Virus genome (UHGV): UHGV-1658972
DNA from: a virus
DNA: 14,153 bases
Reading direction: 5' to 3' (one strand)
Position numbers: made by a program. Positions 3,001-9,000 of this stretch are shown here, piece by piece. The first letter of the stretch is position 1. The number at the start of each line of letters is the position of its first letter.

Positions 3001-6000
3001 TTTGCGATATTTCACGCTTATCATTCAGAGTCAGAATCATCATCTTTCTCCTGTTCTTTGTGCTGATTGAGCATTTTGTTCATCTGACGAATGAATTCTT
3101 CGTCTGACCAGTTATCTGTAAAACTCATTTCCTGCGATACCACGGAAGGTTGATAGCTGATTTCATCGCTTTATTTGCTTCAAGCCACATTTTTGAATCA
3201 CCAATAAATCTGGCTATTACTGCTTTGTTTTGTGCCGCACGAAGCATCTGGTGATTAATGGCTATTTCATTGCGCATAATAAGACCTCAACTCTTTTCCA
3301 TCCGTCACGTAATTTACGGGTGATTCGTTCAAGTAAAGATTCATTTAATTGGAAGGCACCCATGCGAGCGCCTCCCGCGATTGCGTAAATCATGGGTGGT
3401 TCCTTATGTTGGTTTTATTAGTAGGTTATTTTTGTTGCGAATACTTCGCCTTTTACGATGGCTGTTATGATATTTTTAGCAACATCTTCTGATGCGCCAA
3501 CCTTGATAAGGTCAGCAAGTATTTTGTTATTTACTTCTTTTCGGTGAGCTTTATCCTTTGCTCTACGCTCTTCTTCGTCCTTGATTCTTTTTTCTTCTGC
3601 TATTCTGGCTTGCTCTTTTGCTTCAGCCTCGCGCCGGATTCGTTCAGCCTCCTCCTGTGCTTTTCTGCGTTCTGCTTCAATTGCCGCCTGCTTTTCTCTT
3701 TCAGCTCGTTCTGCTGCCTCTTTTGCTTCGCGCAGTGCTCGTTGCTCGGCTTCAATGCGTTCACGCTCTGCACGTTCCGCTGCGGCCTTAGCTTCTGCTT
3801 CTCGCCTTGCTGCTGCTTCAATTTCGGCTTTTGCCTTTGCTTCGGCTTCTGCTCTGGCTTTCTCTTCAGCTTCTCTTTTTAAGCGTTCTTCATGCTCTCG
3901 CTTTTCCTGCTCCGCTTTGAGTCTTGCCTCTTCTCTTTGGCGGTCAAATTCGCGATCCATCAAAATAGCTATTTCATGGTCAGACTCAATTTGCTTTGCG
4001 AGAGCTTCAGCTGCTGCCTTAGCTTCTTCTTCGGCTTTAATCCGCGCCTGTTCTTCCTCATAATCAGTAAGAGGCTGGCGTGCCTTGGCTTTCAGCTCAT
4101 CAAGGCGATCACGCACTGTCTTGCGGTTAGCATCAATTAGCTTTGGAATTTCCTTCAGTTCAGCAACAAGGTCTTTGCCAAGACCATCGAGATATGTTTT
4201 CGTCTGCGCAACTTTATACGCCAGAGAAGCGATCTCCTTTCTGCCCTTTGCCGTTGTGATATCAGGCACAAAGGACATAACTTCACGTTCAACCTTTTGA
4301 AGGATTTCTTCAATCTGGTCGGCAGACTGAAATACAGTCATTGCATTTGCTTTTTCAATAACAACTAAATCTGTTACTTCACTCATATATCCTCCATCAA
4401 AAAAATTGCCCTCACACTGGAGGGCAAAGAAGATTTCCAATAATCAGAACAAGTCGGCTCCTGTTTAGTTACGAGCGACATTGCTCAGTGTATTCACTCG
4501 TTGGAATGAATACACAGTGCAGTGTTTATTCTGTTGTTTATGCCAAAAGAAGGCCGACTATGCGGCCTGTGATGTTAGATTTACTTTCATTTTTGAACGG
4601 CAGCTACAATTATGATGGAATGTACAAAACCACTTTCCAGTTCATAGAAGTGGATGATGGCATAAAATAATCCCACGACTCGTTAGCTACGAGCTCTTTA
4701 TTAACTGTGGTGGCAGCAATTTCGGCATCGCCTTTATTATTAAAAATGTCGTTCGAATACTGACATTTTCCATCTGCATGCACATATAAAATATCATATG
4801 TCTCTGTATCGTAATAACCACTTATGTCTCTGATAACAATTCCTGGCTTCAATGATTTAATTTTCTCGTCCATATCTCACCTCAAATAAGTGGTTTGCTG
4901 CGAAAATAAATCCGCTTAAGTTACCTGTTATTTATCCCACCAAGTTCCGTATCTATCTATCCAGTTACACCAATCATCGACACTCCATTTTGCTGTGTCG
5001 CATTTTGGCAAATGGCATGAATATCTACCTTCTTTGTAAAGTCGGCGTTTGACTTTCTTGAGCATGGCTCACCTCAATCGTAATAAGCTGGAATTGATTT
5101 TCCGCGTTGTTTCTGGCGGCCTGAGCAAGTCACACCCATTTCACTGCGTGGCTTGCGGTAGTAAATACGGTTCTGTTTACGCTCGACTTCTTCTGCCTTC
5201 TTGCAGCGAAGGCTTCCGAGTGATGCTGCTTTATCTGCTCTGACGCAACCAGAGAGCTTTAGCGCAATTTTTCGCGCCAGTCGCTGCTCTTGCATTGCCT
5301 GTTCACGTTGAGCCTGTCTGCGTGCTCTGCGGCGATTTCTGGCGTTATCGTCAGCCAGATATGTAATGACTACTGCCATGTTGACCTCCGATGATTGACT
5401 TTGGCGATTGGATGGCCGGTGCTGAACTCCGGCTTATTTACAGGCACCTTGTTCTCCCGAAGCTCTCCTGCGCGCATCAGCCTGCGCATTCATCCAATCC
5501 CAAAGCCAACTACTCTTTGGTTCCCGCATTTCGGCGGGACAATTCCATCAATGTTAAAGAGCCTGCCAATCTGTTCCGTTTGGCTACCAGCGTCCTGCTG
5601 ATGGCTTAAATTTAAGATCTCTTTAATTAATGGTCAAGAGTATTTTTGAAGAAAACTTAAATTTTCTTTCGTAACTTAAGTTTGGCTTTGATTTTTAAAG
5701 GAAATAAAAAAAGGGGCGAATGCCCCCTTATGGAAGGTTTGCTAGTTTTGCATCGACAACTACGCCGATGATTTTGCAGTTCCCGTTGATCTCGATCATC
5801 GGATATTGTGGGTTAAGTGGTTTTAGAAACTTCCTGCCTGCATCAATAACTAACTTCTTGAAAGTTGCCTCGTTTTCTCCTTCGAGCTTTGCAACTACCA
5901 GTTTCCCGTTACGCGGCTCTACTTCAGGATCGACGAGTATTATCATTCCTTCAGGGATACTGAGACCGGCCGGAGCCGTCATTGAGTCTCCCTTCACGTC

Positions 6001-9000
6001 CAACCAAAACGAATCGTCTGAACAGTCTACGGTTGTATCGTACCAGTTATCTATTGCACGCTTATGATATGGTTCTACAGCTTCCATCCAGCATCCTGCG
6101 CTCACCCAGCTAATCAGAGGGTATGACCCTCTTGGATCATGCCTACTGTGATAGGCAATGTTTGAAAGACTTTCCTCTCCTTTCATCAGATAGTCAGGGG
6201 AACACTTCAACGCATTAGCCAGGGCGAGAAGATTCTCTCCATTTGGCTCTGTCTCAGAGCGTTCCCACTGAGATATGGCAACATTAGACACGCCGACCAT
6301 CTTTCCAAGTGCGGCCTGCCTGATCTTGAGTTCTTTTCTCCGAGCGCGAATGCGCTCTCCCATCAATTGAGTTTTCATAGTTAAGACATCTTAAATAAAC
6401 TTGACTTAAGATTCCTTTAGTGGATAATTTAAGTGTTCTTTAATTTCGGAGCGAGTCTATGTACAAGAAAGATGTTATCGACCACTTCGGAACCCAGCGT
6501 GCTGTAGCTAAAGCGTTAGGCATTAGCGACGCAGCAGTCTCTCAGTGGAAGGAAGTCATCCCAGAGAAAGACGCCTATCGACTGGAAGTCGTTACAGCTG
6601 GCGCCCTGAAGTATCAAGAAAGCGCTTACCGCAAAGCGGCATAAGCAAATTGCTCTTTAACAGTCATGGTCCTCATTCCCGCCGAAATGCGGGAATACAA
6701 CGCGCATAAGTTGATGCGCATAACTTCTTATTTGTTAAGGAAATACTTACATATGGTTCGTGCAAACAAACGCAACGAGGCTCTACGAATCGAGAGTGCG
6801 TTGCTTAACAAAATCGCAATGCTTGGAACTGAGAAGACAGCGGAAGCTGTGGGAGTTGATAAGTCGCAGATCAGCAGGTGGAAGAGGGACTGGATTCCAA
6901 AGTTCTCAATGCTGCTTGCTGTTCTTGAATGGGGTGTCGTCGACGACGACATGGCTCGATTGGCACGACAAGTTGCTTCGATTCTCACCAATAAAAAACG
7001 CCCGGCGGCAACCGAGCGTTCTGATCAAATACAAATGGAATTTTAACAACATCCAACGAGGTAATTATATGCGAAACAAAGGCTTTAATCCACCTGATAC
7101 ACACAAAGAAGCTAAGCGTTTGCGCTTCCTTCGTTCCATTGATGAAAGAACTCAAATCTCTTTTGTGAAAGTTGCCAGAACTGAGTTTCTGAAGGCTGAG
7201 GCGAGGGCGTTGCTCCCGTCTCTACCAAAAGAGGAGGGATATACGTTCATTCCAAACGCATTTCTGGAAAAGCTTCTCAAAGAAGACATATCCGTAAGTC
7301 AGTTTAACGATGTTCTTAAGGTCTTTCGTCAAGGCAGGTAGTTATGAGCAATACAGCAAAAATCTACGATTTCAGCGCCGCACACGAGCGCAGGAGCAAC
7401 AGGATGGAGAACCAGAAAACTGGTTACATTCCGTTGTACCGGAGCATTCTGAAACAGTCATGGGCGAAAGATGTTTATCTTCGCACCCTGTGGGAAAACC
7501 TTCTCCTGAATGCCGCCAGAAAGCCATACAAAGCGAATTTCAAAGGTCATGAATGGCATCTGCAACCCGGTCAACTGGTTGTGACAGCAGCTGATTTAGG
7601 TCTTCAGTTATGCGACAGGCATGGCAAGCCAGCAAGCCGTGATCAGGTTGAGCGGATGCTTCAGGTTTTTGTGAAAGAGGGGATGATTTCCATTGATGGA
7701 GAGAAGCAAAAAGGGCGTGTGATCACCATCACAAATTACCATGAATACGCTCAAAAAATGGACAATTCACCCGCACATGAAGCCGCACAAACAACCGCAC
7801 ATGATGCCGCACATGATGAAGCCAGTAATGGCGCGGCTTTCAGCGTACATGCCACACATGAAAGCGCACATGAAGCCGCACAAACAACCGCACATCATGA
7901 ACAAGAAGGTATTAACAAGAATATAAATAATACCCCCCTACCCCCCAATGGGGGAGGCGATGGGCAGGTTAAACCTGAACGTCGCAAGGCAGAACGAATC
8001 GACTACGAATCCTTCCTGAACGCCTACAACACCGAAGTCGGTGACAGACTGCCACACGCTGTTGCGGTCAACGAGAAACGCAAACGCCGCCTGAAGAAAA
8101 TCATCCCGCAACTGAAAACGCCAAATGTGGACGGTTTCAGAGCGTATGTCAGGGCGTTTGTGCATCAGGCCAAGCCGTTTTACTTCGGAGACAACGACAC
8201 GGGCTGGACGGCTGATTTTGATTACCTGCTGAGGGAAGACTCGTTAACGGGAGTTCGGGAAGGGAAGTTTGCAGACAGGGGGATTGCATGAGACAGGATA
8301 TCGAAGCGAGCGTTATCGGTGGCCTGCTGATTGGTGGATTAACTCCAACCGCCAGTGACGTTCTGGCAACGCTTGAGCCGGAAGCGTTTTCAATTCCGCT
8401 CTACCGGAAAGCCTTCGAAGTTATCCGGAAGCAGGCGCGAAACAGAAACCTAATCGACGCGTTGATGGTTGCCGAGGCGTGCGGAGAGGAGCATTTCACG
8501 TCAATCCTGATGACCAGCAAAAACTGCCCGAGCGCCGCAAACCTGAAGGGATATGCCGGAATGGTCGCGGATAACTATCACCGCCGTCTGGTGCTGGAAA
8601 TCATGGATGAAATGCGTGAACCAATTCAGAGCGGAACCATCGACGCATCGAGTCAGGCGATGGATGAACTGGTAAAACGTCTTTCAGCCATCAGAAAGCC
8701 CCGTGACGAGGTTAAACCTGTACGGTTAGGGGAAATCATAACTGACTACACTGACACGCTTGACAGGCGTCTGAGGAACGGAGAAGAGTCAGATACCCTG
8801 AAGACCGGAATCGAAGAACTTGACGCCATCACCGGAGGGATGAACGCGGAAGACCTGGTGATTATCGCTGCTCGTCCTGGTATGGGGAAAGCAATGGCGC
8901 TAAGCGAAGGGATTTTACTTGCAGATGGCACCTGGACTACTCACGGAGAAGTCAAAATTGGCGATCGCATCGCGTCAATAGACGGGCTTCCTTCGGAGGT

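Follow-up and report, generated by a model that had tools for sequence, protein, structure and literature searches.

Three classes of lambda-type N antitermination have been characterised, those of lambda, P22 and phage 21, and their N-utilization (nut) sites, as read from annotated phage records, differ in the boxB hairpin that follows boxA. In lambda, boxA is CGCUCUUA and boxB has the form GCCCU-GAAGA/GAAAA-AGGGC; in P22, boxA is CGCUCUUUA and boxB is GCGCU-GACAA-AGCGC at nutL and ACCGC-CGACAAC-GCGGU at nutR; 933W, which is of the H-19B type, has the nutR boxB UCGCU-GACAA-AGCGA; and in phage 21, boxA GCUCUUUAACA accompanies the boxB hairpins UCUCAAC-CUAACC-GUUGAGA and UUCACCU-CUAACC-GGGUGAG. 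The lambda and P22 boxB loops form GNRA-like folds with one looped-out base, the C in the case of P22, and the phage 21 hexaloop forms a GNRA-like UAAC with a flanking C-C pair (PMC12550061). Another pair of sites has been annotated since 2001 in the HK620 record (AF335538), under the labels 'nutL; putative N-utilization leftward' and 'nutR; putative N-utilization rightward'. In this report, we describe two inverted boxA-boxB repeats that bound the repressor-cro module in a 14,153-nt stretch of the virus genome UHGV-1658972 (the whole stretch is hereafter called the window), and we conclude, with a probability that we put at roughly 0.9, that they constitute nutL and nutR in an N antitermination system of lambda type, one belonging to the HK620/CUS-3 class, in a mosaic E. 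coli prophage with a P22/21-type repressor and cro. Their boxA is GCUCUUUAACA, as in phage 21, and their boxB is CCCGC-CGAAAU-GCGGG, with a loop unlike those of all three characterised classes.

The two annotated HK620 features read GGCTCTTTAACATTGATGGGATTGTCCCGCCGAAATGCGGGA (nutL) and CGCTCTTTAACAGTCATGGTCCTCATTCCCGCCGAAATGCGGGAAT (nutR). The window nutL differs from the former by one spacer base and has an identical boxB, and from the nutR boxA through the terminator tR1 to the start of cII (6652-6755) the window is 100% identical to HK620 over 104 nt. Because both repeats match annotated sites of AF335538, they are, judged by sequence, an HK620-type nut pair. The HK620/CUS-3 class combines CCCGC-CGAAAU-GCGGG at both sites with the N motif NARNRRRARRQAQREQ, and all of these are present in the window with sequence identity to HK620. 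A megablast comparison of positions 5000-7100 with phage records returned Gally, CUS-3, JEP4, N7 and IME10 at ~99% identity, and phage 21 and P22-like phages over part of the region at 85-88%; the CUS-3, Gally and HF4s records contain the same nut sequences without annotation. The original prediction, which recognised a matched nut pair here, was therefore correct but ordinary, as such sites were already annotated in HK620, and it had missed that the nut and N type is that of HK620 and CUS-3 and not a new one. As a discovery, textbook-type regulatory sites carry little weight; the class itself is nevertheless common in E. coli genomes and viral contigs, and most phage records leave its sites unannotated. 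The exact pattern of boxA, 8-25 nt and boxB was found in at least 120 viral contigs, mostly as an inverted pair, and the segment from the N motif through the leader to nutL matches 550 of 5,426 complete E. coli genomes (~10%). Among species-representative genomes, the segment was found only in one Escherichia sp. and in two contigs of metagenome-assembled genomes, probably mis-binned; the scan is uninformative on host range. Two short contigs of metagenome-assembled genomes (L211 and L212), assigned to Bacillales and Segatella copri, carry exact E. coli-phage nut sites, most likely as binning contamination.

Both repeats exceed by far what chance would give in the window. The boxA 11-mer GCTCTTTAACA has only two copies, one on each strand (Table 1), where ~0.34 matches would be expected by chance with up to one mismatch allowed; the boxB 16-mer CCCGCCGAAATGCGGG also has only two copies, at 5523-5538 (-) and 6678-6693 (+), where chance would give ~0.01 matches, and two copies arose in 0 of 200 shuffles. 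The 8-mer GCTCTTTA constitutes boxA-L and boxA-R in the phage 21 record. The sequence GCUCUUUAACA is the E. coli rrn boxA consensus. On the left, 13 nt (5539-5551) separate the 11-mer from the 16-mer, and on the right 15 nt (6663-6677); once the full predicted stems are counted, the spacer shortens to 12 nt at nutL and nutR alike. Both boxB copies fold into a hairpin with a CGAAAU hexaloop, closed at nutR by the 8-bp stem AUUCCCGC/GCGGGAAU; folded in isolation, the nutR hairpin has a free energy of -12.5 kcal/mol (z -4.06, 0/200 shuffles) and the nutL hairpin one of -10.5 kcal/mol (z -2.9, 3/200 shuffles). Thus, the once-per-strand repeats, the unequal spacing and the hairpins of the original prediction all agree with what we find. 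A search of Rfam at gathering thresholds gave two tRNAs only, Rfam having no nut family to match. The features expected of lambda-type N/nut systems are in place at the level of the RNA, namely a GCUCUUUA-like boxA on both early transcripts, provided by GCTCTTTAACA downstream of PL and PR, and a stem-loop, nearly the same at nutL and nutR, ~8-15 nt 3' of boxA.

GC-rich stem-loops in untranslated leader or intergenic RNA could in principle terminate transcription intrinsically, be cut by RNase III or stabilise transcripts, all independently of N, but we consider this hardly credible for the two boxB hairpins. Neither is followed by a T-run (the sequences read ACAACGCGC and CCAAAGAG) and the terminator scan makes no call at either, which excludes intrinsic terminators; RNase III would need longer stems than the 6-8 bp present here; and conserved pairing with a boxA at a fixed distance is the signature of nut sites.

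The position of the repeats is also that of nut sites. Only two good sigma-70 promoter matches lie within 4800-7400, one PR-like on the plus strand and one PL-like on the minus strand, and the boxA-boxB units are therefore placed on transcribed strands, each on that of its own operon with boxA 5' of boxB. The PL-like promoter, from which the N operon is transcribed, corresponds in alignment to the pL and OL annotated in phage 21, by way of the 87% homology block 5544-6664. Leftward, nutL begins ~40 nt past the PL start and precedes the N start by 143 nt; rightward, nutR starts 8 nt past the cro stop and ~220 nt downstream of the PR-like promoter. We infer the mechanism with high confidence from homology, position and covariation, taking binding, Nus-factor dependence and terminator readthrough from the paradigm set by lambda, P22 and phage 21. 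Once PL and PR are active, every early transcript would bear boxA GCUCUUUAACA and, 12-15 nt later, the boxB hairpin with its C-GAAA-U loop; the N-terminal arginine-rich helix of N (NARNRRRARRQAQREQ) would bind the boxB RNA (UCCCGCCGAAAUGCGGGA), NusB/S10 would assemble on boxA and NusA on N and the spacer, and the C-terminal region of N, a homologue of those in phage 21 and lambda N, would engage RNA polymerase. The RNA-tethered complex would then read past tR1 and later terminators on the right and past the tL terminators on the left, and cII should be the first gene whose expression depends on readthrough from nutR.

Candidate targets of such a complex are found on both sides. The hairpin GCGCAU-AAGUUG-AUGCGC directly after nutR, annotated as tR1 at the same place and in identical sequence in HK620, is a candidate for the first terminator or pause that N-modified polymerase has to pass. 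Leftward, two intrinsic-terminator-like hairpins follow N, and HK620 annotates tL1 and tL2 in the equivalent operon. The terminator scan is of the intrinsic type, by which Rho-dependent terminators are not recognisable. A strong intrinsic terminator of 12 pairs and a T-run lies at 6995-7022 on the minus strand, antisense to the 3' end of cII, which is the position of the oop RNA terminator of lambda and P22.

The N protein of the window is itself a mosaic, with an HK620-type N-terminus joined to phage-21-type middle and C-terminal parts. Overall it shares 64% identity with phage 21 N, rising to near-identity from residue 34 to about 90, whereas residues 1-33, which include the arginine-rich motif, are unrelated (DDNARNRRRARRQAQREQAMQE here versus KGTAKSRYKARRAELIAERRSNE in phage 21). 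By tblastn, HK620 N is 97% identical over residues 1-64, the whole motif included. The 37 C-terminal residues match lambda N in the antitermination complex PDB 6GOV (E 6.3e-7). N is the first PL gene and has an N-terminal arginine-rich motif, predicted from its sequence to form the boxB-binding helix (residues 10-31), as well as a C-terminal RNA polymerase-binding region, with the Pfam N_peptide family scoring below threshold. Between boxB-L and N, the leader folds into a long stem-loop (Table 1), and the N leaders of HK620 and phage 21 have the same fold architecture with another inner helix sequence, which points to a conserved structure comparable to the lambda N leader that is processed by RNase III.

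Comparative evidence on the link between this N and its boxB comes from related loci in viral contigs. From 216 N relatives we kept 80 loci, picked by the shared N C-terminal peptides RCKKAEE and KQNRIYY and hence blind to both motif type and boxB type; four were unusable, three because the contig broke off within the locus or the region upstream of N was rearranged, and one because no N could be recognised. Where the motif was of the HK620 type and the flanks were intact, CGAAAU was present at both nut sites (66 of 66 loci), and where it was of the phage 21 type, both sites had CUAAC(C/A/U) or CUAAUC (10 of 10), so that knowing the motif type suffices to predict both boxB loops in all 76 usable loci. 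Two apparent exceptions were dismissed. One (L042) proved to be a chance boxA-like match ahead of the real nutR, whose loop is CGAAAU; the other (L044) is a truncated prophage in which homology begins 14 nt upstream of N. The latter locus (IMGVR_UViG_2731957842_000007, ~3487-3770) keeps an HK620-type N at 99% without nut sites, promoter or immunity region and is probably a rearranged or decayed prophage. Between the nut sites of the sampled loci lie at least eight unrelated immunity modules of 0.9-2.8 kb. Two clusters of these modules hold both N types, one with 24 loci of the HK620 type and one of the phage 21 type and the other with nine of the phage 21 type and three of the HK620 type; because either N type occurs with the same module, the motif and the two boxB copies switch together on the same immunity background. 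Such joint switching is what a cognate protein-RNA pair predicts, and on sequence grounds it gives strong comparative support to the pairing, though not proof.

Several points weigh against identifying the repeats as functional nut sites of this N. The HK620 annotation itself calls its sites 'putative', and a search of the open-access literature found no experiments on a CGAAAU boxB or on this N motif. The Pfam N_peptide match to N, at 18.9 bits, is under the gathering threshold of 27.9. The sampled loci are related prophages in which the elements lie physically close, and therefore linkage adds to co-inheritance and the counts are not independent events. Finally, boxB is invariant across the loci, which leaves the core stem without compensatory changes as a test.

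Comparison of the window with its relatives indicates how the locus was assembled. Homology to phage 21 falls into two blocks, 5110-5281 (N from residue ~34, 96.5%) and 5544-6664 (the nutL spacer and boxA, PL/OL, repressor, cro and the nutR boxA, 87%), and is broken over 5282-5543 and past 6664; homology to P22 covers 5546-6665 (84%), and homology to HK620 extends over the N N-terminus, leader and nutL (5188-5609) and from nutR to cII (6652-6755). The immunity module is thus bounded exactly by the two boxA elements, where the P22 and phage 21 homologies end, and its description as a P22/21-type region is confirmed by these DNA identities, by cro (Table 1) and by a repressor with 92% identity to P22 C2 and 97% identity to phage 21 cI. 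The motif codons fall in the phage 21 homology gap and inside the HK620 block, and it is exactly these codons together with boxB-L, to the left of the module, and boxB-R, to its right, that are unlike phage 21 and like HK620. The arginine-rich motif and both copies of boxB consequently come, as far as the alignments tell, from an HK620-type module.

This arrangement raises the question of whether the inverted repeat acts mainly as DNA, that is, as a 'boundary sequence' for recombination of immunity modules and not as an RNA element. The P22 and phage 21 homologies end at the boxA pair (5544/5546 and 6664/6665), at least eight different modules are found between the same nut pair, and in the CUS-3 record N and cI are separated by a feature labelled 'boundary sequence'. 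We nonetheless regard this as very improbable, since both copies lie immediately after the early promoters, in the orientation that places boxA ahead of a foldable boxB in the transcript, and since the loop type follows the arginine-rich motif of N, a match that a site serving recombination alone would not require; a role as a recombination joint would be a by-product compatible with nut function. Read as nut sites, the repeats illustrate the modularity of these genomes: the immunity module is swapped exactly at the two boxA elements, and the N motif, boxB-L and boxB-R, which flank it on both sides, always travel together.

What the CGAAAU loop means for specificity is less certain. It is an established expectation that lambdoid N proteins which differ at their N-termini also differ in boxB specificity. 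The differing N N-terminus of epsilon34 led to the prediction of a novel BoxB specificity in its genome paper (PMC2629481), and identical boxB sites have been used as an argument for shared specificity in phage L (PMC8022706). We tentatively propose, with somewhat less than even confidence, that the boxB described here may be a fourth N-peptide/boxB solution, in which GAAA, a GNRA sequence, would sit on a C-U platform with no looped-out base and be read by a Trp-less, lambda-like RRRxRR helix, orthogonal to the lambda, P22 and phage 21 pairs. The reading of C-GAAA-U as a plain GNRA fold on a C-U platform is made by analogy with the C-C pair and UAAC of phage 21. If true, the pair would provide a natural data point on how arginine-rich helices discriminate among GNRA-like folds and another orthogonal peptide-RNA tether for engineering.

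The sites could, on the other hand, be genuine nut sites without CGAAAU being a separate specificity, if this N and lambda (or P22) N cross-recognise each other's boxB hairpins, given that the loop holds a GNRA tetraloop (GAAA) and that the motif has a lambda-like core, RRRxRR. In that case the term 'specificity partner', which the original prediction applied to the boxB of this N, would be overstated. The motif aligns with that of lambda N as A-x-x-R-R-R-x-R-R, the boxB loops of lambda, P22 and phage 21 are all GNRA-like (PMC12550061), and the P22 nutR boxB ACCGC-CGACAAC-GCGGU has a stem and loop flanks nearly as in the window. In the intact loci examined, however, the HK620-type motif always goes with CGAAAU, never with the loops of lambda, P22 or phage 21, and the stem and closing pair in the window differ from those of lambda. 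Trp18 of lambda N, known from the structure of the lambda N-boxB complex, has no counterpart in this N, where the aligned residue is Ala28. We therefore think cross-recognition unlikely, if considerably less so than the DNA-level role discussed above. The prediction that the loop departs from the lambda pentaloop stands, and its claim of a specificity partner gains support from the covariation of motif and loop in natural loci, a support that falls short of demonstration.

The surrounding genes are those of a standard lambdoid early region, with N, repressor, cro, cII, replication genes and a Q gene (Table 1). The helicase gene (8288-10681, +) carries a 339-amino-acid insertion inside the Walker-A loop (GMGK|...|T; nt 8891-9907, residues 202-540), which starts with Ala, ends with His-Asn followed by Thr and contains matches to Pfam LAGLIDADG_3 and Hom_end. 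By these sequence features, the insertion resembles an intein that contains a homing endonuclease and is of the unusual Ala-1 type; an uninterrupted helicase of ~1.4 kb is annotated at the same position in CUS-3 and P22. Between the Q gene and a phage-21-type holin gene (13488-13703) lie tRNA genes for Asn-GTT (13214-13288, +) and Thr-TGT (13294-13369, +), in the late-operon leader, which in Shiga toxin (Stx) phages houses tRNAs along with toxin genes; the window itself contains no toxin gene. In the leftward direction, an open reading frame at 3418-4440 (-) encodes a very Glu/Lys/Ala/Arg-rich, coiled-coil-like product without a Pfam match, and the record of phage HF4s describes its homologue there as resembling the phi80 Agt 'antitoxin'.

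Table 1. Positions of the nut sites and of other early-region features in the window.
Feature	Position	Strand	Basis and remarks
Two intrinsic-terminator-like hairpins, candidate tL	4568-4551, 4427-4406	-	Downstream of N; terminator scan
N antitermination gene, 101 amino acids	5074-5379	-	First gene of the PL operon
Arginine-rich motif codons, N residues 10-31 (DDNARNRRRARRQAQREQAMQE)	5287-5352	-	Alignments
N-leader stem-loop	5394-5510	-	Basal helix of ~20 bp, z -5.06; between boxB-L and the N Shine-Dalgarno
nutL boxB hairpin	5522-5539	-	6-bp stem UCCCGC/GCGGGA, hexaloop CGAAAU (5528-5533)
nutL boxA, GCUCUUUAACA	5552-5562	-	Exact match; within HK620 annotated nutL; equals phage 21 boxA-L
PL-like sigma-70 promoter	5609-5637	-	TTGACC, 17 nt, TAAATT; promoter scan; in P22/21-type OL operator region
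Intrinsic terminator ending the repressor transcript (tIMM equivalent)	5710-5729	-	Terminator scan; HK620 tIMM at the equivalent place
Repressor gene, P22 C2 / phage 21 cI type	5728-6378	-	Pfam HTH_3 and Peptidase_S24; LexA-type
PR-like promoter	6401-6428	+	TTGACT, 16 nt, GATAAT; promoter scan, 10/12 matches
cro, P22-type	6459-6644	+	Pfam P22_Cro, 8.7e-28
nutR boxA, GCUCUUUAACA	6652-6662	+	Exact match; within HK620 annotated nutR; equals phage 21 boxA-R
nutR boxB hairpin	6675-6696	+	8-bp stem, hexaloop CGAAAU (6683-6688)
Hairpin followed by a U-rich tract, candidate tR1	6702-6719	+	tR1 position between nutR and cII; fold
cII, lambda-type	6753-7046	+	97% DNA identity to lambda cII; translation
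O-like replication gene	7344-8291	+	
DnaB-type helicase gene	8288-10681	+	
Intrinsic-terminator-like hairpin	10707-10730	+	After the helicase gene, tR2-like position; 8 pairs then TTTTTATTT
Q-type late antiterminator gene	12634-13122	+	

Among the closest known systems, HK620 has another immunity module, with a 434/L-like cI and a lambda-like cro, between the same nut sites, and its N has another C-terminus, which is H-19B/P22-like. The N proteins of CUS-3, Gally and HF4s are 90-98% identical to that of the window over their full length, and the CUS-3 N leader differs by an insertion of ~170 nt. Phage 21 has the same boxA 11-mer, the same position and orientation of both nut sites and the same repressor-cro module, at 87% DNA and 97% repressor identity. 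Its boxB is also a hexaloop, C-UAAC-C as compared with C-GAAA-U here, known from the structure of the N peptide-boxB complex (PDB 1NYB); in both loops, a pyrimidine-pyrimidine pair flanks four central bases that can adopt a GNRA-like turn. The arginine-rich motif of phage 21 (GTAKSRYKARRAELIAERR) is, however, unrelated to that of the window (DNARNRRRARRQAQREQ), as are the boxB stems and loop, and a phage 21-type specificity (CUAACC read by GTAKSRYKARRAELIAERR) was rejected on the loop CGAAAU and the unrelated motif. In P22, a homologous immC module is likewise bounded by two boxA elements (84% DNA and 92% repressor identity), and the P22 nutR boxB resembles CCCGC-CGAAAU-GCGGG in its stem and loop flanks; the C looped out of GA[C]AA is contacted by the peptide in P22 (PMC12550061; PDB 1A4T), whereas the window has a plain GAAA. 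P22 gp24, the product of gene 24, differs from the N described here in both the arginine-rich motif and the remainder, and the features of a P22/H-19B-type specificity, GACAA with a looped-out C and the motif GNAKTRRHERRRKLAIER, are not those of this locus. A GAAA boxB for the experimentally studied N of H-19B/933W, for which one paper mentions a 'tetra-loop', was also considered and discarded, the 933W nutR boxB having the P22-type GACAA. Lambda, lastly, has the same layout, with boxA, spacer and boxB downstream of PL and PR and N as the first PL gene, and its N has in common with that of the window the motif core RRRxRR and a homologous C-terminus (6GOV). It differs in its boxA (CGCUCUUA versus GCUCUUUAACA here), in a pentaloop on GCCCU/AGGGC, in shorter spacers and in an unrelated immunity region; the GAARA pentaloop, the GCCCU/AGGGC stem and the Trp18 motif of a lambda-type specificity are replaced here by a CGAAAU hexaloop, a CCCGC/GCGGG stem and a motif without Trp.

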